From: a virus
Taxonomy: Duplodnaviria; Heunggongvirae; Uroviricota; Caudoviricetes
Direction: 5' to 3' (one strand)
DNA: 14,030 nucleotides
IMG/VR virus record: IMGVR_UViG_2565956629_000003
Part shown: in pieces, positions 1,523-10,518 of the stretch
How positions within the stretch are numbered: the first letter of the stretch is position 1
Layout of the letters: the number at the start of each line of letters is the position of its first letter
Made by a program: the position numbers and the translations under genes
Notes under the pieces: model-generated
Seen by the model: the letters and a program-made list of their open reading frames with translations, nothing else
Databases searched by the model: none
Told to the model about the DNA's origin: nothing

Positions 1523-3624
1523 TGCTGAATCAGGAAACCGCAAAGGCAGCACGAACCGATTCAGGTTATATCCTTCGAGCACCGAGACGAATGCGGGTTG
1601 CTGATGCCGTTGCTCAGTATATGCGGGTGCCCATGGGGGCAGGGAACTCAGTCCCGTGGGATCCGCTGGTGGCACCGTATGTTATTGAGCCGATGAACTG
1701 CCTGGCCTCGCGTGAATACGACGCAGTGATATTTGTTGGCCCGGCACGAACCGGCAAGACTATCGGCCTGATTGACGGCTGGGTGATTTACAACGTGATT
1801 TGCGATCCTGCTGATATGCTGATCATTCAGATGACGGAGGAAAAAGCCCGCGAACACTCCAAAAAACGACTCGCCAGAACGTTTCGCGTCAGCCCGGAAG
1901 TGGTCAGTCGCCTGAGTCCGAACAAAAATGACAACAACGTTTATGACAGAACATTCCTTGCTGGCAACTACCTGAAAATCGGCTGGCCGTCAGTCAATAT
2001 CATGTCCTCATCAGATTATAAATGCGTCGCGCTGACGGATTATGACCGTTTTCCGGAAGATATTGATGGCGAGGGGGATGCCTTCTCTCTTGCCTCAAAA
2101 CGTACCACCACATTTATGTCCAGCGGTATGACGCTGGTGGAGAGTTCCCCCGGCAGGGATGTGAAGGATGTGAAATGGCGACGGACTTCACCGCATGAGG
2201 CTCCACCAACCACGGGGATCCTGTCGCTCTATAACCGTGGTGATCGCCGTCGCTGGTACTGGCCCTGTCCACACTGTGGTGAGTATTTTCAGCCCTGCGG
2301 CGATGTGGTTGCTGGTTTCCGTGATATTGCCGATCCCGTGCTGGCAAGTGAGGCGGCTTATATTCAGTGTCCTTCCTGTTCAGGACGGATTATGCCTGAA
2401 CAAAAACGTGAGCTGAACGGACGTGGGGTCTGGTTGCGGGATGGTGAATCCATCAATGCGGATGGCAGTCGTTATGGTGATCCCCGACGCTCACGTATTG
2501 CGTCATTCTGGATGGAGGGTCCGGCAGCTGCTTACCAGACACTCTCGCAACTCGTTTACAAACTGCTTACTGCAGAACAGGAATACGAGACAACCGGAAG
2601 TGAAGAAACACTCAAGACGGTTATCAATACCGACTGGGGATTACCTTATCTTCCCCGCGCCAGCATGGAGCAACGAAAAAGTGAACTGCTTGAGCAGCGG
2701 GCAGAGCCAGTTCTTTCCCGCAGTGTGCCGGATGGCGTTAATTTCCTTGTGGCGACAGTGGATGTGCAGGCGGGACGTCATCGCCGTTTTGTGGTTCAGG
2801 TAACGGGCTATGGCAGCCGTGGCGAACGCTGGATTATTGATCGTTACAACATCACGCAGTCATTGCGCGGTGACAGCGACGGGGAGAGCCAGCGAATTGA
2901 TCCGGCCAGCTATCCGGAAGACTGGGATGTCCTGCTGACGGATGTTTTTCATAAAAGCTGGCCGCTGGCCTCCAATCCTTCTCAACAAATGCGACTGATG
3001 GCAATGGCGGTGGACTCCGGCGGTGAAGACGGGGTCACTGATAATGCCTATAAATTCTGGCGTCGTTGCCGTCGTGATGGCCTTGGTAAACGTATTTACC
3101 TGTTTAAGGGCGACAGCATCCGGCGCGCAAAACTGATCACCCGTACATTCCCTGATAACACCGGACGAACGGGCCGACGGGCGCAGGCCGCAGGTGATGT
3201 GCCGCTCTGGCTTCTTCAGACGGATGCCCTGAAAGACCGGGTGAATAACGCGTTATGGCGTGACTCGCCAGGTCCCGGCTATGTGCATTTCCCTGACTGG
3301 CTGGGGAGCTGGTTTTACGACGAACTGACGTATGAAGAGCGGAGCAGTGACGGGAAATGGAGTAAGCCGGGGCGCGGTGCCAACGAAGCTTTTGACCTGA
3401 TGGTGTATGCCGAGGCTCTGGTCATTCTGCATGGATACGAAAAGATCCGCTGGCCGGATGCACCGGAGTGGGCGAGCCGGGAAACCTGGCTGGAGTGTGT
3501 CCCGGACAGTACCGAACCGTCACCCACACCGGAACCTGTATCCACGCCTGTTAAAAAACAAAAACGGAAGAAAACAGTAACTGACGATGTTAACCCCTGG
3601 CTGACTTCCGGAGGATGGTTATGA
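1522..3624 (+). CDS. terminase large subunit (lambda gpA family)
   Basis: 700-aa ORF. P-loop GPARTGKT (about 1737-1760). Cys motifs CPHCGEYF and CPSCSG comparable to lambda gpA CPHCGEE. Synteny with small terminase upstream and gpW/portal downstream. Confidence 0.93.
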   Translation: MLNQETAKAARTDSGYILRAPRRMRVADAVAQYMRVPMGAGNSVPWDPLVAPYVIEPMNCLASREYDAVIFVGPARTGKTIGLIDGWVIYNVICDPADMLIIQMTEEKAREHSKKRLARTFRVSPEVVSRLSPNKNDNNVYDRTFLAGNYLKIGWPSVNIMSSSDYKCVALTDYDRFPEDIDGEGDAFSLASKRTTTFMSSGMTLVESSPGRDVKDVKWRRTSPHEAPPTTGILSLYNRGDRRRWYWPCPHCGEYFQPCGDVVAGFRDIADPVLASEAAYIQCPSCSGRIMPEQKRELNGRGVWLRDGESINADGSRYGDPRRSRIASFWMEGPAAAYQTLSQLVYKLLTAEQEYETTGSEETLKTVINTDWGLPYLPRASMEQRKSELLEQRAEPVLSRSVPDGVNFLVATVDVQAGRHRRFVVQVTGYGSRGERWIIDRYNITQSLRGDSDGESQRIDPASYPEDWDVLLTDVFHKSWPLASNPSQQMRLMAMAVDSGGEDGVTDNAYKFWRRCRRDGLGKRIYLFKGDSIRRAKLITRTFPDNTGRTGRRAQAAGDVPLWLLQTDALKDRVNNALWRDSPGPGYVHFPDWLGSWFYDELTYEERSSDGKWSKPGRGANEAFDLMVYAEALVILHGYEKIRWPDAPEWASRETWLECVPDSTEPSPTPEPVSTPVKKQKRKKTVTDDVNPWLTSGGWL

Positions 3625-3833
3625 ACCAGAATGATATCGAAGCCATGATTCAGCGTTATACGGAAGCTGAAATGGCGGTGCTGGACGGAAAATCCGTCAC
3701 CTTTAATGGTCAGCAGATGACCATGGAAAACTTATCTGAGATCCGGCAGGGACGGCAGGAGTGGGAGCGCCGCCTTGCGGCTCTGATTACACGACGACGG
3801 GGGCATCCCGGGTACCGGCTGGCGAGGTTCTGA
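3621..3833 (+). CDS. head-tail connector / head completion protein (lambda gpW-like)
   Basis: ATG at 3621 lies 6 nt after GGAGG (3610-3614) and overlaps the terminase stop (ATGA). 70 aa ending ...RRRGHPGYRLARF, similar in size and C-terminal RRRG motif to lambda gpW. Located between terminase and portal as in lambda. Confidence 0.7.
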   Translation: MNQNDIEAMIQRYTEAEMAVLDGKSVTFNGQQMTMENLSEIRQGRQEWERRLAALITRRRGHPGYRLARF

Positions 3834-5341
3834 TGGCAATTCTTGATGATGTGATTGGCGTTTTTTCACCAGGATGGAAAGCGGCAAGGCTGCGTTCCCG
3901 TGCGGTGATCCAGGCTTATGAGGCCGTAAAAACGACGCGGACACACAAAGCCCGGCGGGAAAACCGAACTGCCGACCAGTTAAGCCAGTACGGGGCCGTG
4001 TCGTTACGTGAGCAGGCCCGTTACCTTGATAACAACCACGATCTGGTTATTGGTGTATTTGACAAGCTGGAAGAACGGGTGGTGGGGAAAAACGGGATTA
4101 TTGTCGAGCCACATCCGGTATTACGCAATGGGGCCATTGCCCGTGACCTGGCTGCGGAGATTCGCACCCGATGGAGTGAATGGTCTGTCAGCCCGGAAGT
4201 CACCGGGCAGTTTACCCGTCCGATGCTGGAACGTCTGATGCTGCGTACCTGGCTGCGCGATGGTGAGGTGTTTGCCCAGATGGTTTCCGGGCGCATAAAC
4301 AGCCTGACGCCTTCTGCCGGTGTTCATTTCTGGCTGGAGGCGCTCGAGCCGGACTTTATTCCCATGACCAGTGATGAGAGCAACAGGCTGAATCAGGGCG
4401 TGTTTGTTGATGACTGGGGGCGTCCCGAAAAATATCTGGTGTATAAAAGCCGTCCCGTATCCGGACGGCAGATGGAAACCAAAGAAGTGGATGCAGAGCG
4501 AATGCTGCATCTTAAATTTGTTCGCCGTCTGCACCAGATGCGCGGGACGTCTTTGTTGTCCGGTGTGCTGATCCGCCTCAGTGCCCTGAAAGAGTATGAA
4601 GATTCTGAGCTGACTGCAGCAAGGATCGCCGCTGCTCTGGGGATGTACATCCGCAAAGGCGACGGGCAGAGCTATGAACCGGATGGTAATGGCAGCAAGG
4701 ATAAGGAACGCGAGCTTACCATTCAGCCAGGCATTATTTACGACGATCTGAAACCCGGCGAAGAAATCGGAATGGTGAAGTCGGATCGTCCCAATCCTAA
4801 CCTTGAAACTTTTCGTAATGGTCAGTTGCGTGCCGTGGCGGCGGGCAGTCGTCTGAGTTTTTCCAGTACGGCACGCAACTATAACGGTACTTACAGCGCC
4901 CAGCGTCAGGAACTGGTTGAGTCTACTGATGGCTACCTGATCCTGCAGGACTGGTTTATTGGTGCCGTCACCCGCCCGATGTATCGTGCCTGGCTGAAAC
5001 AGGCTGTGGCATCCGGTGTTATCAGGCTACCCCGCGATCTTGACCGTTCTTCACTGTATACCGCGGTGTATTCCGGACCGGTGATGCCGTGGATTGACCC
5101 TGTTAAGGAGGCTGAGGCCTGGAAAATCCAGATTCGTGGTGGAGCGGCGACAGAATCAGACTGGGTACGTGCAGGTGGTCGTAATCCGGATGATGTCAAA
5201 CGTCGGCGCAAGGCCGAAATTGATGAAAACCGCAAGCTGGATCTGGTATTTGATACCGATCCAGCCAGTGATAAAGGAGGCAGCAGTGCCGCAACGAAAC
5301 GACAGGAGCCGCAGCATACCGACGACCAGTCCGAAGAATAA
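3833..5341 (+). CDS. portal protein (lambda gpB family)
   Basis: ATG at 3833 overlaps the upstream stop (TGATG); the longer ORF-track start at 3761 would overlap the upstream gene by 72 nt. About 502 aa, acidic C-terminus. Position between gpW-like and the protease/capsid gene. Confidence 0.88.
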   Translation: MAILDDVIGVFSPGWKAARLRSRAVIQAYEAVKTTRTHKARRENRTADQLSQYGAVSLREQARYLDNNHDLVIGVFDKLEERVVGKNGIIVEPHPVLRNGAIARDLAAEIRTRWSEWSVSPEVTGQFTRPMLERLMLRTWLRDGEVFAQMVSGRINSLTPSAGVHFWLEALEPDFIPMTSDESNRLNQGVFVDDWGRPEKYLVYKSRPVSGRQMETKEVDAERMLHLKFVRRLHQMRGTSLLSGVLIRLSALKEYEDSELTAARIAAALGMYIRKGDGQSYEPDGNGSKDKERELTIQPGIIYDDLKPGEEIGMVKSDRPNPNLETFRNGQLRAVAAGSRLSFSSTARNYNGTYSAQRQELVESTDGYLILQDWFIGAVTRPMYRAWLKQAVASGVIRLPRDLDRSSLYTAVYSGPVMPWIDPVKEAEAWKIQIRGGAATESDWVRAGGRNPDDVKRRRKAEIDENRKLDLVFDTDPASDKGGSSAATKRQEPQHTDDQSEE

Positions 5342-5354
5342 TTCCTGGTTCAGG

Positions 5355-7313
5355 ATGCAGGCTGGTCACCAGAGTGACGCGGATATTTATATTTATGACG
5401 AGATTGGTTTCTGGGGTGTTACAGCGAAGCAGTTTATCAGTGATCTGAATGCACTGGGCGATATCACCCACATTAATCTCCATATTAATTCACCGGGTGG
5501 CGATGTCTTTGAAGGCATCGCCATTTTTAATGCGCTGAAAACACATGGTGCGTCCATTACCGTTTATGTCGACGGTGTGGCGGCGTCAATGGCGTCGGTC
5601 ATTGCGATGGTGGGAAACCCGGTCATTATGCCGGAAAACACCTTCATGATGATTCATAAACCATTTGGCTTTACGGGCGGTGATGCGGAGGACATGCGCA
5701 CCTATGCCGACCTGCTCGATAAGGTTGAGGCGGTTCTGTTACCCGCTTATGCACAGAAAACCGGGAAAACCACCGATGAAATTGCTGCCATGCTGGCGGA
5801 TGAGACCTGGATGTCCGGTGCCGAATGTCTGGCACATGGATTTGCTGATCAGGTAACGCCAGCCGTTAAGGCAATGGCATGTATTCAGTCAAAACGTACA
5901 GAGGAATTTAAAAAGATGCCGGAATCCATTCGAAACATGATTACTCCGCCACGCAACAGTGCTCCACGCGTACAGGATGATGAACCTGCAGCCTCCCGGA
6001 CGCCAGTGCAGGCAGCAGCACCCGTGGTGGATGAAAACAGTATCCGTGCGCAGGTACTGGCAGAGCAAAAAGCGCGTGTAAACGGTATTAATGATCTGTT
6101 TGCCATGTTTGGCGGGCGTTATCAGACGCTGCAGGCTCAGTGTCTTGCCGATCCTGAATGTTCGCTGGAGCGGGCCCGCGAAAAGCTGTTGAACGAGATG
6201 GGGCGCGAGTCCACGCCATCCAATAAAAATACCCCGGCTCATATTTATGCCGGTAACGGTAATTTTGTGGGGGACGGGATCCGCCAGGCGCTGATGGCGC
6301 GTGCCGGATTTGAAAAAACCGAACGTGATAATGTCTACAACGGGATGACCCTGCGTGAATATGCCCGTATGTCACTGACTGAACGGGGTATTGGGGTTTC
6401 CAGTTATAACCCGATGCAGATGGTCGGTGCGGCGTTCACACACAGTACGTCTGACTTCGGTAATATTCTGCTGGATGTTGCGAACAAAGCCATTCTGCAG
6501 GGCTGGGAAGATGCCCCTGAAACCTATGAACAGTGGACGCGGAAAGGTCAGTTGTCTGATTTTAAAATTGCCCATCGTGTGGGTATGGGGGGCTTCAGTG
6601 CTCTGCGTCAGGTGCGTGAAGGGGCGGAATATAAATACGTCACCACCGGAGATAAACAGGCCACTATTGCACTGGCGACCTATGGCGAGCTGTTCAGTAT
6701 CACCCGTCAGGCCATTATCAATGATGATCTGAATATGCTGACCGATGTCCCGATGAAACTGGGCCGTGCGGCGAAATCCACTATTGCCGATCTGGTTTAT
6801 GCCATTCTGACGTCTAACCCGAAAATCTCCACAGATAATGTAAGTCTGTTCGATAAAGCGAAACATGCAAACGTACTGGAGAGCGCTGCAATGGACGTGG
6901 CATCGCTGGATAAAGCCCGCCAGTTGATGCGCGTTCAGAAAGAGGGGGAGCGTCATCTGAATATTCGTCCTGCGTTCGTACTGGTACCGACGGCGATGGA
7001 GTCTGTTGCTAACCAGGTCATTCGCTCCTCAAGTGTCAAGGGGGCTGACATTAACGCCGGTATTATTAACCCGGTGAAAGATTTTGCGACCGTTATTGCA
7101 GAGCCTCGTCTTGATGATAACAGCCAGACCACCTTCTACCTGGCTGCGTCAAAAGGCTCCGATACGATTGAAGTGGCTTATCTCAACGGTGTGGATACGC
7201 CATATATTGATCAGATGGAGGGCTTCAGTGTGGATGGCGTGACAACGAAAGTGCGTATTGACGCCGGTGTCGCGCCAGTTGATCACCGCGGTCTGGTGAA
7301 ATGTACGGCGTAA
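5355..7313 (+). CDS. prohead protease (ClpP/S49 type) - scaffold-like linker - major capsid protein fusion
   Basis: Continuous ORF. N-terminal domain carries ClpP-type motifs GVAASMAS (Ser codon 5586-5588) and MMIHKP (His codon 5655-5657). Middle is an Ala/Pro/Gln-rich linker. C-terminal ~400 aa is capsid-like. Start chosen at the first ATG after the portal stop (5355); the ORF-track start at 5094 would overlap the portal by about 250 nt. Confidence 0.85.
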   Translation: MQAGHQSDADIYIYDEIGFWGVTAKQFISDLNALGDITHINLHINSPGGDVFEGIAIFNALKTHGASITVYVDGVAASMASVIAMVGNPVIMPENTFMMIHKPFGFTGGDAEDMRTYADLLDKVEAVLLPAYAQKTGKTTDEIAAMLADETWMSGAECLAHGFADQVTPAVKAMACIQSKRTEEFKKMPESIRNMITPPRNSAPRVQDDEPAASRTPVQAAAPVVDENSIRAQVLAEQKARVNGINDLFAMFGGRYQTLQAQCLADPECSLERAREKLLNEMGRESTPSNKNTPAHIYAGNGNFVGDGIRQALMARAGFEKTERDNVYNGMTLREYARMSLTERGIGVSSYNPMQMVGAAFTHSTSDFGNILLDVANKAILQGWEDAPETYEQWTRKGQLSDFKIAHRVGMGGFSALRQVREGAEYKYVTTGDKQATIALATYGELFSITRQAIINDDLNMLTDVPMKLGRAAKSTIADLVYAILTSNPKISTDNVSLFDKAKHANVLESAAMDVASLDKARQLMRVQKEGERHLNIRPAFVLVPTAMESVANQVIRSSSVKGADINAGIINPVKDFATVIAEPRLDDNSQTTFYLAASKGSDTIEVAYLNGVDTPYIDQMEGFSVDGVTTKVRIDAGVAPVDHRGLVKCTA

Positions 7314-7336: not shown

Positions 7337-7356
7337 GGCCCGTAAGGGCTTTTTTT
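7337..7356 (+). terminator. putative intrinsic terminator downstream of the capsid gene (short GC stem, GNRA loop, U7)
   Basis: ggccc-GTAA-gggct followed by TTTTTT (7350-7356), directly after the capsid stop at 7313. Confidence 0.4.
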
Positions 7357-7399
7357 GTACCTGAAATCAGCCCCTGAACGGGGCTGTGCGGAGACAGTT

Positions 7400-7723
7400 A
7401 TGGCAAAGAATTTTGTAGAAGAAGGAAAAACGGTGGCGATTGTTGCCAGTGCAGCCATCAGCAGCGGAGATCTGGTGCAGGTGGGTGATGTTTTTGCGGT
7501 GGCGCTGACCGATATTCCACAGGGTGAAACAGGCGACGGCATGACCGAAGGTGTGTTTATGCTGCCTAAGCTGAAAACGGATGACATGAAAACGGGTAAG
7601 AAGGTTTATCTGAAGTCCGGAAAAGTTCAGCTGACTAACAGCGGCTCTGATCCGCTGGTCGGGGTTGTCTGGGCAGATGCCGGAACCAGTGCAGAAGAAG
7701 TGCCGGTAAAACTCAATGTCTGA
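7400..7723 (+). CDS. small head-associated protein (possibly DUF2190-type decoration / capsid-associated protein)
   Basis: ATG at 7400 with GGAG at 7390-7393. 107 aa, MAKNFVEEGKTVAIVASAAISSGDLVQVGDVFAVAL... Follows the capsid gene, where decoration proteins are typically encoded. Family assignment is from memory and unverified. Confidence 0.55.
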   Translation: MAKNFVEEGKTVAIVASAAISSGDLVQVGDVFAVALTDIPQGETGDGMTEGVFMLPKLKTDDMKTGKKVYLKSGKVQLTNSGSDPLVGVVWADAGTSAEEVPVKLNV

Positions 7724-7991
7724 TCCCTTTTCCCGGCTGGCAGCGCGTATGGATGCGATCACGGTCAGAAAGATGGGAAAGACAGCCTCGATTAATGATG
7801 TCGATATGACTGTGATCCCGGGAGAAACACTGGCAGAGCTGAATGCTCTGTCCGGACCTGCGGTCTCTCTGGTGGTGTTTTCTTCGGGATACCGCCCACG
7901 GCGCGGGGATCGCGTTGTTTATGACGGACAACAATGGACGGTCACACGGCATGAACGCTTTAACGGTAAGCCAATGATCTTTATTGAGTAA
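7716..7991 (+). CDS. head-tail joining protein (lambda gpFII-like)
   Basis: ATG at 7716 overlaps the upstream stop. 91 aa with ...RPRRGDRVVYDGQQWTV..., reminiscent of lambda FII (...RRGDTLTIGEENFWVDRV...). Position immediately before the Z/U tail genes. Confidence 0.55.
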   Translation: MSDPFSRLAARMDAITVRKMGKTASINDVDMTVIPGETLAELNALSGPAVSLVVFSSGYRPRRGDRVVYDGQQWTVTRHERFNGKPMIFIE

Positions 7992-9733: not shown

Positions 9734-9753
9734 CAGGACGATACTCATCATTT

Positions 9754-9777
9754 GCCCCGGTTATCCGGGGCTTTTTT
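9754..9777 (+). terminator. rho-independent terminator downstream of the major tail gene
   Basis: gccccgg-ttat-ccggggc (7-bp GC-rich stem) followed by TTTTTT (9772-9777), 21 nt after the V stop. Confidence 0.6.
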
Positions 9778-9790
9778 GCAGGTGGAGAAC

Positions 9791-10180
9791 ATGATGTTTC
9801 TGAAACAGGGCACGTTTAATTATGAAAAACAGTCCGTGGTGCTCAGTGAGCTGTCCGGGCTGCAGAGAATTGAATATCTGGCGTTTGTTCAGCAGCGAAC
9901 GGCAAAGTTTGATGCCGGTGAGGGAGAACTGCCGGAGGCTGAACGACAGATTGCTTTTCTGCGGATGGGGATGGATATCAATGCCTGGCTGGTTTCCCGC
10001 TCACTGTGGAATGCGGATCAGTCTAAGGATGTAGAGACGCTTTGCGCATCCGTTATTACAACATGGTCGTATGATGCCCTGGGTGCGGGGGCGGAGATGG
10101 TTCTGTCGCTGAGCGGTATGGGGGCCATTGATAATGCCGGGGATGATGAGCATGAGGCGCTGACGCCGGAAAAGTCCTGA
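9791..10180 (+). CDS. tail assembly chaperone (lambda gpG-like)
   Basis: ATG at 9791; the ORF-track start at 9752 lies inside the terminator hairpin. Product MMFLKQGTFNYEKQSVVLSELSGLQRIEYLAFVQQR... matches lambda G (MFLKTESFEHNGVTVTLSELSALQRIEHLA...). Confidence 0.9.
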   Translation: MMFLKQGTFNYEKQSVVLSELSGLQRIEYLAFVQQRTAKFDAGEGELPEAERQIAFLRMGMDINAWLVSRSLWNADQSKDVETLCASVITTWSYDALGAGAEMVLSLSGMGAIDNAGDDEHEALTPEKS

Positions 10181-10518
10181 CGCGGGAAATGCAGTTTGTC
10201 ATGCGGCTTGCCCGGGAGTTCCGGCGGGCAGACTGGCGGCGGATGCTGTCGGAAATGTCGGCCACTGAGCTTGGTGAGTGGGGCGATTATTTCCGGATGC
10301 AGAGCTTCAGTGATGTGTGGATGGATGCGCAGTTTGCCTCGCTGAAGGCATTGATCGTGAGAATGGTGTCCGGCAGCAGTGATGCTGCGGTGGCTGATTT
10401 CAGCCTTTTACCGGAAGAGAACGGGATACCGGAGCGAACGGACGAAGAACTGATGCATCTTGGGGAAGGTATTTCCGGAGGTGTGCGTTATGGACCAGAT
10501 AGCCAACCTGGTCATTGA
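9791..10518 (+). CDS. tail assembly chaperone G-T fusion produced by -1 frameshift near 10168-10174
   Basis: The T-frame translation (...GKVLTREMQFVMRLAREFRRADWRRMLSEMSATE...GISGGVRYGPD...) matches the lambda gpT part of gpGT (VLTREMQFVMRLAREF...GIAGGVRYG) as recalled. T has no convincing independent start context. Confidence 0.7.
10168..10174 (+). promoter_or_regulatory. putative -1 programmed ribosomal frameshift site (GGAAAAG) for G-T fusion
   Basis: Located 4 nt before the G stop codon. The -1 frame is open from 10156 and continues into the T reading frame to 10518. Lambda uses GGGAAAG at the equivalent position. Confidence 0.55.

Follow-up and report, generated by a model that had tools for sequence, protein, structure and literature searches.

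A protease-scaffold-capsid fusion gene of a lambdoid coliphage and a conserved candidate internal start in its linker

Downstream of its portal gene, phage lambda encodes a protease, a scaffold, a shell protein, and a stabilizer (C, Nu3, E, and D), of which the first two are annotated as nested coding sequences (CDSs), Nu3 (5132-5737) beginning at an in-frame internal start within C (4418-5737). Mu I/Z and P2 O follow the same nested pattern, with gpI of Mu as the protease, gpZ as the nested scaffold, and gpT as the capsid protein. In HK97, an N-terminal scaffold segment (delta domain) of the shell protein is cut off by a phage protease packaged in the prohead; the delta domain and the capsid protein together make up gp5. 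Here, we analyze a gene in which the parts for these functions, with the exception of the stabilizer, are joined in one frame after the portal gene. It lies in a 14,030-nucleotide (nt) stretch of DNA from a caudoviricete (IMG/VR record IMGVR_UViG_2565956629_000003), hereafter the window. Related one-gene arrangements have been described elsewhere. Paracoccus prophages carry a protease-capsid fusion of ~700 amino acids (aa) that combines ClpP (S14) with gpT (PMC6536676), a ClpP plus gpT-like architecture was noted in Rhodobacter RcC phages (PMC8601537), and protease-scaffold-capsid fusion is a recognized feature of small actinobacteriophages, including Microbacterium cluster EE, Arthrobacter AN, and others (PMC7302621). 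The actinophage fusions share the one-gene idea with the gene studied here, to which they are likened by description, and their hosts differ.

The window was identical (100% of nucleotides) to the coliphage mEp460_4F5 (Escherichia virus); its identity was 98.6 to 99.9% with mEp460, cdtI, Ayreon, Tritos, and others, and ~77% with long-tailed Stx phages. The fusion protein scored 984.1 bits (E 3.7e-296) over positions 2-651 of the 652 positions of NCBIfam profile NF045540 (scaf_prot_MCP1), named [quoted passage not shown] and curated with a cut-off of 475 bits. PHROG 133 spanned the protein end to end, and RefSeq WP_001136583.1, which bears the same name as NF045540, has its exact sequence (CDS 5286-7313). 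Members of NF045540 and PHROG 133 were alike in protein architecture over the full length and also in the gene order portal, fusion gene, DUF2190 cement gene; identity of the fusion protein was 99 to 100% in the mEp460 group, ~70 to 77% in Gifsy-2, Fels-1, and the long-tailed Stx phages, and 56% in Pseudomonas phages. No substantive difference separated these members from the window gene, the annotated start alone varying between records. With high confidence, the gene is the head-shell gene of a mEp460/cdtI/Gifsy-2-type lambdoid phage, a member of NF045540 with protease, linker, scaffold, and capsid parts in one frame.

Of 5,426 complete E. coli genomes, 2,125 (~39%) gave a close DNA match to the fusion gene, and 2,017 of these contained at least 80% of it. 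At the protein level, the full-length frame occurred in 77 phage records, including Gifsy-2, Fels-1, cdtI, VT1-Sakai, mEp213, mEp043, and the Pseudomonas phages F10, MD8, and JBD68. Representatives clustered at 50% identity yielded more than 100 clusters with the fusion, and most of the best 150 matches were 640 to 740 aa long and aligned over residues ~19-672. Bordetella phages contributed three of the phage-record matches, which may concern the protease part only; a PDB sequence search with the capsid domain returned no Bordetella phage capsid chain. The gene is known, catalogued, and already named by annotation pipelines. In E. coli, Shigella, Salmonella, and Pseudomonas, few prophage head genes are commoner, and the fusion itself is not new. 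A first-pass annotation of the window had remarked that such fusions are known in some enterobacterial prophages, which is right and understates their frequency.

The same annotation named a sequencing error as what might have created an artificial fusion. That separate protease and capsid genes were joined by a sequencing or assembly error that erased a stop or frameshift has a negligible probability and is ruled out by the identical open frame in independent complete genomes and phage isolates, that is, in the E. coli genomes, phage records, and clusters counted above. In one related draft genome (GCA_000755365.1, contig BBMQ01000056.1, 2357-4332), separate genes are indeed called for the protease and the capsid, as this explanation would have it, but the two-gene call is due to frameshifts, apparently more than one, and the locus looks like a draft error or a decaying prophage.

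The frame of the fusion gene was open on the plus strand from 5094 to its TAA and was uninterrupted through 5355-7313, where the first-pass annotation had read a single open reading frame (ORF) joining protease, scaffold, and capsid; Pfam CLP_protease and Phage_capsid_4 matched its two ends (Table 1). Residues are numbered on the 675-aa protein, 23 above the numbers of that annotation. On the 652-aa translation from ATG 5355, Pfam CLP_protease covered residues 23-168 (E 4.5e-36). Profile NF045542, "head maturation protease, ClpP-related," scored 215.8 bits against a cut-off of 120 (E 3.3e-64). ClpP chains in the PDB aligned over both the Ser and the His motif (best E 3.9e-16), and AlphaFold modeled most of the domain with a predicted local distance difference test (pLDDT) score of 73 to 90. 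The Ser and His of the GVAASMAS and MMIHKP motifs, already singled out as ClpP-type in the first-pass annotation, aligned with the catalytic residues of ClpP and were near-invariant across 131 family representatives (clusters at 50% identity). Of the profile searches proposed there, those for CLP_protease and for a capsid domain matched and that for Peptidase_S49 did not: the SppA (S49) profile reached 22 bits against a cut-off of 155 (E 8e-5), and the Pfam scan was without Peptidase_S49. The protease is of the ClpP-like S14 type.

At the position of the catalytic Asp of ClpP the protein has Glu173, which, from the pairwise alignment, would be the third residue of the triad. The cellular ClpP equivalog TIGR00493 gave 59.7 bits, well below its cut-off of 308.6, and the domain is ClpP-like in fold and motifs and no ClpP orthologue. 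Its conserved residues point to an active protease. It is very improbable that the domain is catalytically dead and acts solely as an extra scaffold, with maturation left to a host protease or dispensed with. The Glu in place of Asp would fit such a role and weighs against an active enzyme, but Ser101 and His124 are essentially invariant and the third residue is acidic in 125 of the 131 representatives, features that dead enzymes normally lose, and the head module contained no other prohead protease gene.

Between the protease and capsid domains lies a Pro/Ala-rich stretch, the low-complexity linker of the first-pass annotation, followed by a three-helix segment with conserved R264, I268, and L301/L302 whose position and helical nature suggest that it serves as a scaffold. 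Pfam Phage_capsid_4 matched residues 354-649 of the 652-aa translation (E 1.2e-54), and Mu-like_gpT matched the capsid domain more weakly (3.8e-08). In a full-length AlphaFold model, built from 39 sequences of at least 54% identity, the capsid part had pLDDT <50, and only the protease and scaffold parts were used. A model of residues 249-675 built from 106 more diverse sequences reached pLDDT 87.9 and a predicted template modeling score (pTM) of 0.73, and consisted of three N-terminal helices, a disordered stretch (309-324), and the capsid domain. Foldseek searches of the PDB with this capsid domain retrieved encapsulins, HK97, and other phage capsids (probability 1.00, E ~1e-9 to 1e-7), and together with the confident model they establish an HK97 fold for the predicted C-terminal domain, in keeping with its earlier description as capsid-like and with the structure prediction that had been suggested as a check. 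The PDB sequence search gave only weak and partial matches, to the GpT-type capsid of JBD30 (8rkc, 2.4e-4), so that a close solved capsid structure is lacking. On the models, a maturation cleavage releasing the capsid domain would most likely fall within residues 309-324, and the mature capsid protein would be ~38-40 kDa. In Pfam and PHROG scans, the fusion gene was the only capsid gene and the only protease gene found in the head module.

Table 1. Positions of the fusion gene, its parts, and adjacent elements in the window
Feature	Position	Strand	Details
Shine-Dalgarno (SD) sequence AAGGAGG	5274..5280	+	5-nt spacer to GTG 5286
Complete fusion gene (ClpP-like prohead protease, linker, scaffold segment, HK97-fold major capsid)	5286..7313	+	675 aa, 73.6 kDa; GTG start, TAA 7311-7313
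ClpP-like (MEROPS S14) protease domain	5343..5855	+	Residues 20-190; from Pfam, NF045542, PDB ClpP chains, AlphaFold
ATG, start in the first-pass annotation and in several GenBank phage records	5355..5357	+	Probably an internal codon (Met24), in the W-[FY]-x-[IML] first protease strand
Catalytic Ser101 codon (Ser78 in the first-pass numbering)	5586..5588	+	In GVAASMAS; aligns with the ClpP active-site Ser; Ser in 130/131 representatives
Catalytic His124 codon	5655..5657	+	In MMIHKP; aligns with the ClpP His; His in 131/131 representatives
Glu173 codon, at the position of the ClpP catalytic Asp	5802..5804	+	From pairwise ClpP alignment; Glu in 111/131, Asp in 14/131
Interdomain linker	5859..6029	+	Residues 192-248; conserved F-x-x-x-P, then a Pro/Ala/Thr-rich part of variable length; predicted disordered, pLDDT <50
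Candidate internal SD sequence GAGGA	5901..5905	+	Across the codons of Glu206 and Glu207
Candidate internal start ATG (Met211)	5916..5918	+	465-aa, 50.7-kDa linker-scaffold-capsid product, protease-less; shared stop
Scaffold-like (delta-domain-like) three-helix segment	6030..6209	+	Residues 249-308; pLDDT ~85-94 (249-675 model), 69-87 (full-length model)
Disordered junction STPSNKNTPAHIYAGN	6210..6257	+	Residues 309-324; pLDDT <50 in both models; length and sequence vary across the family
HK97-fold major capsid domain	6258..7310	+	Residues 325-675; from Pfam, AlphaFold, Foldseek
Terminator-like hairpin, GCCC-GTAA-GGGC core, then T run	7337..7357	+	24 nt past the capsid stop
Head cement/decoration gene (DUF2190/Phage_cement_2)	7400..7723	+	107 aa; Pfam Phage_cement_2 1.4e-20; PHROG 122 "head decoration" 1.8e-47

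Within the linker, an SD-like motif precedes an in-frame ATG (Table 1), and comparable signals recurred in relatives. Among diverse full-length relatives (39-52% identity), nearly every linker contained a single Met, mostly followed by Pro, and two to five residues upstream of this Met stood K-E, E-E, G-E, or Q-E, encoded by codon pairs that spell AAGGAG, GAGGA, or GGAG. The E. coli and Pseudomonas branches had no downstream linker Met and an invariant Met211-Pro212, set in "EEFKKMPES" or "QEFAHMPEA," and branches with a downstream linker Met carried T, A, or V at position 211. The Met211 codon was ATG, preceded by an AGGA core at a constant distance, in every one of 70 distinct close homologues from viral contigs. 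The residues encoded at this core differed (EE as GAGGAA, ED as GAGGAC or GAGGAT, QE as CAGGAG, GD as GGAGAT, and KD as AAGGAT) and the AGGA core stayed.

For a quantitative comparison, clustering at 80% identity reduced 111 distinct ORFs to 47 lineages, and each in-frame ATG was scored for pairing of its positions -18 to -3 with the 16S rRNA 3' end, with a threshold of <=-5.5 kcal/mol. At this threshold, 43 of the 47 lineages had a linker ATG with an SD-like duplex. Signals of this strength stood before 42.6% of linker ATGs; for ATGs in other parts of the ORFs the share was 8.1%, and for linker codon positions without ATG it was 11.0% (Fisher p 3e-16). The aligned spacing between SD and ATG was 8 nt in 29 of the 43 lineages and 5 nt in seven, and Pro followed the linker Met in 34. 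All 15 lineages with Glu206 encoded it as GAG, the codon used for 41% of the other Glu residues of those genes (p 1.7e-6). The mRNA at the site was also weakly structured, with a mean folding energy of -5.1 kcal/mol in 45-nt windows against -10.6 kcal/mol in the rest of the ORF (Wilcoxon p 3e-9) and a G+C content of 0.47 against 0.58. For the window's own site the folding energies were -1.4 and -9.4 kcal/mol, respectively, placing it among the 2% least structured positions. An SD-like motif, low structure, and an ATG are, taken together, the usual marks of a predicted translation initiation region.

The signal also recurred, at varying linker positions, outside the ClpP-type branch of the fusion family. 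In the family NF045541 (scaf_prot_MCP2), exemplified by the "major head and protease protein" gp8 of Stenotrophomonas phage S1, the linker-scaffold-capsid part was homologous to residues 197-649 of the window protein, which scored 399.2 bits with this profile, below the cut-off of 525, and is not a member. The N-terminal domain of the S1-type proteins differed in being not ClpP-like, without a Pfam match, and not alignable with the window protein. At the same junction, S1 has CAGGAG, a 7-nt spacer, and ATG-CCG, an SD-like motif with Met-Pro as in the window, and a Phage_cement_2 gene follows the fusion gene. The comparison suggests that the protease domain was swapped at the linker between lineages. 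In the S1 genome, the scaffold-capsid module fused to the non-ClpP N-terminal domain occupies 2502-4484, and NF045541 is a prohead protease fusion family.

On this comparative evidence, we judge it probable that the internal start at 5916 is used and that the locus works as a nested gene pair, producing the 465-aa scaffold-capsid protein beside the 675-aa protein by the logic of lambda C and Nu3. The ratio of the two starts would set the number of protease copies that enter each procapsid. The first-pass annotation had spoken of a single polypeptide, which holds for the uninterrupted frame and may be incomplete in view of the conserved internal ribosome-binding site and ATG.

Several points weigh against use of the internal start. 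Its signal is a feature of the linker and not of one alignment column, lying further downstream where Met211 is absent. The lineages are related, so the p-values overstate their independence. SD-like motifs inside genes have also been proposed as translational pause sites. A nested CDS was annotated in none of the public records inspected, and a literature search found no experiment on the processing or expression of the fusion protein or a close homologue; a CBASS preprint on a Bas13 protease-scaffold fusion concerns another family, and a preprint on the phage D3 capsid makes no mention of fusions. Three candidate lines of support were tried and set aside. Met211 failed as a family-wide start column, since that column is mostly A, V, or I in the 131 representatives and only Pro212 is conserved. 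The natural split in the draft genome described above (P0286/L240) could not serve as proof of an internal start, its junction being frameshifted and apparently its protease part too, as in a draft error or pseudogene. A second apparent split version (P0348/L239) is cut by a contig end, with the frame open upstream.

The alternative is that the 675-aa protein is the only product, so that each of ~415 shell subunits bears its own protease and scaffold, and that the SD-like motif and ATG of the linker are a relic of a two-gene ancestor, a pause site, or the result of constraint on the protein. We regard this as a serious possibility, if a somewhat doubtful one. The frame is uninterrupted in all relatives, hence a full-length protein must be made, and the public records inspected annotate no nested CDS. 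It is physically possible as well, since by our own estimate 415 internal parts of ~34 kDa would fill about one-third of the interior of a T=7 procapsid. Conservation of Pro212 in 125 of 131 representatives indicates that part of the motif reflects protein constraint. A relic, however, would not last in 43 of 47 lineages that have diverged to ~27-58% identity. Also against a single product, the AGGA core is kept through both synonymous and nonsynonymous choices, including GAG in 15 of 15 lineages, and the ATG is at the aligned 8-nt spacing in 29 of 43. The site also coincides with a local trough in mRNA structure and G+C content, and lineages without Met211 have another SD-like motif with Met-Pro further along the linker.

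The beginning of the fusion gene is itself annotated inconsistently. RefSeq uses GTG 5286, and several GenBank phage entries (LR595868, NC_019716, NC_009514, and others) use ATG 5355, as did the first-pass annotation, giving a 652-aa protein. A good ribosome-binding site is absent at ATG 5355 and an SD sequence precedes the GTG (Table 1). The 23 additional residues (5286-5355) end in N-S-W-F-R and include an S-W-[FY] motif whose S20 and W21 show little or no variation among E. coli and Pseudomonas relatives (54-96% identity). Because the SWFR codons come after the portal stop, their conservation is not explicable by the overlapping portal gene. The alignment of 131 divergent representatives puts the Met encoded by ATG 5355 at the I/M/L position of the W-[FY]-x-[IML] motif, and in the structure model the strand at residues 23-26, at the site of ATG 5355, is the first strand of the protease domain. 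The true start is very probably GTG 5286, with ATG 5355 internal. The fusion gene shares 56 nt (5286-5341), in a different frame, with the 3' end of the portal gene, and its SD sequence is consequently part of the portal CDS, an arrangement suggestive of translational coupling.

By analogy with HK97, lambda, and Mu-like systems, an order of assembly can be outlined. A procapsid would form as capsid domains polymerize on the portal, their N-terminal parts turned inward and the three-helix segment serving as a delta-domain-like scaffold. With the internal start in use, the 465-aa protein would supply protease-less subunits, and only a minority would carry the protease. The tethered protease, possibly on that fraction of subunits, would then cut in or near residues 309-324 and probably in the linker too. 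The fragments would exit, DNA would be packaged, and the shell would expand and be bound and stabilized by the separately encoded DUF2190 cement protein.

Each of these model systems differs from the window phage in parts. The protease of HK97, gp4, is encoded by a separate gene and belongs to family S78, whereas the ClpP-like protease of the window is in frame with the capsid; the HK97 capsid is cross-linked and has no cement protein, and the window phage has a cement gene. With Mu-like phages, for example JBD30, the window protein shares a gpT-type capsid domain, the similarity extending over only ~60-70 residues. JBD30 has separate scaffold, protease, and capsid genes as well as minor (decoration) capsid proteins (PMC11445458). 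The lambda protease, C, belongs to family S49 and that of the window to S14; lambda E is a separate gene preceded by D, whereas here the capsid domain is fused and the cement gene comes after it. BLASTP of the window proteins against lambda C, Nu3, D, and E gave no match, and the Pfam scan was without Phage_cap_E.

The first-pass annotation had counted lambda D among the genes replaced by the fusion. This does not stand, as a separate cement/decoration gene lies downstream at 7400-7723 (Table 1), and its product is the predicted functional counterpart of lambda D, non-homologous to it. In Pseudomonas phage vB_Pae_CF165a and Stenotrophomonas phage S1, too, the cement gene comes after the fusion gene, and the window has the order TerL, Ad1 adaptor, portal, fusion gene, Phage_cement_2 in common with Pseudomonas and Stenotrophomonas phages. 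Lambda has FI and the window phage does not, as stated earlier by the first-pass annotation: there is no ORF at the FI position, with one small gene only between the capsid gene and the FII-like gene. The stem of the hairpin past the capsid stop was kept in all enterobacterial lineages examined, with eight different loop sequences, and may be a partial terminator or an mRNA-stabilizing element that separates capsid from downstream expression. A second hairpin, CAGCCCC-TGAAC-GGGGCTG (7368-7386), lies just upstream of the GGAG and ATG of the cement gene.

The genes of the window run in the order small terminase (DUF1441), gpA-family TerL, 72-aa Ad1/W-like adaptor, lambda-family portal, fusion gene, cement gene, Gifsy-2/FII-like Hc1 head-closure gene, and then Z, U, V, G, T, H, and M. 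By BLASTP, Z, U, V, and M were 50 to 55% identical to their lambda counterparts, G, T, and H 25 to 38%, TerL 25%, and the portal 23%. Among the lambda nu1 to M proteins, the small terminase, the adaptor/W-like protein, the fusion protein, the cement protein, and the FII-like head-closure protein had no match. The closely related tail and the distant or unmatched head support a mosaic in which a lambda-like tail would be joined to a head module of another lineage, as had been proposed for this window. A G-like ORF (9752-10180) and a T-like ORF (10189-10518) are laid out as in lambda, where a -1 frameshift makes G-T. The lambda slippery heptamer GGGAAAG had no copy at the G/T junction (10140-10200), and its sole copy in the window, at 7775, is unrelated; the G-like ORF has the stretch CCGGAAAAGTCCTGA at its end. 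Three ORFs lie ahead of the terminase genes, at 8-214, 243-455, and 624-872, of which one is Rz-like and spanin-encoding (PHROG 3198) and the other two are small and conserved (PHROG 11822 and 17397). Since these precede the terminase genes, the window starts in the lysis region and crosses the junction between lysis and packaging genes.

The fusion as such is already known, and the unannotated internal start signal is what this analysis adds. For annotation, the results mean that many GenBank phage records start the fusion gene 23 codons late. Phage records also differ in what they call it ("major head protein," "head maturation protease," "protease C," "Nu3," and "terminase protein"), and names such as "head maturation protease," "Nu3," and "protease C" mask its role as the sole major capsid gene of the phage, with the DUF2190 gene downstream as its cement/decoration partner. 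Beyond annotation, interest lies in the conserved internal start signal alone. Initiation there would account for how such phages keep from attaching a protease to each of their shell subunits, and the nested arrangement of lambda C/Nu3, Mu I/Z, and P2 O would then also cover a gene with the capsid protein in it.

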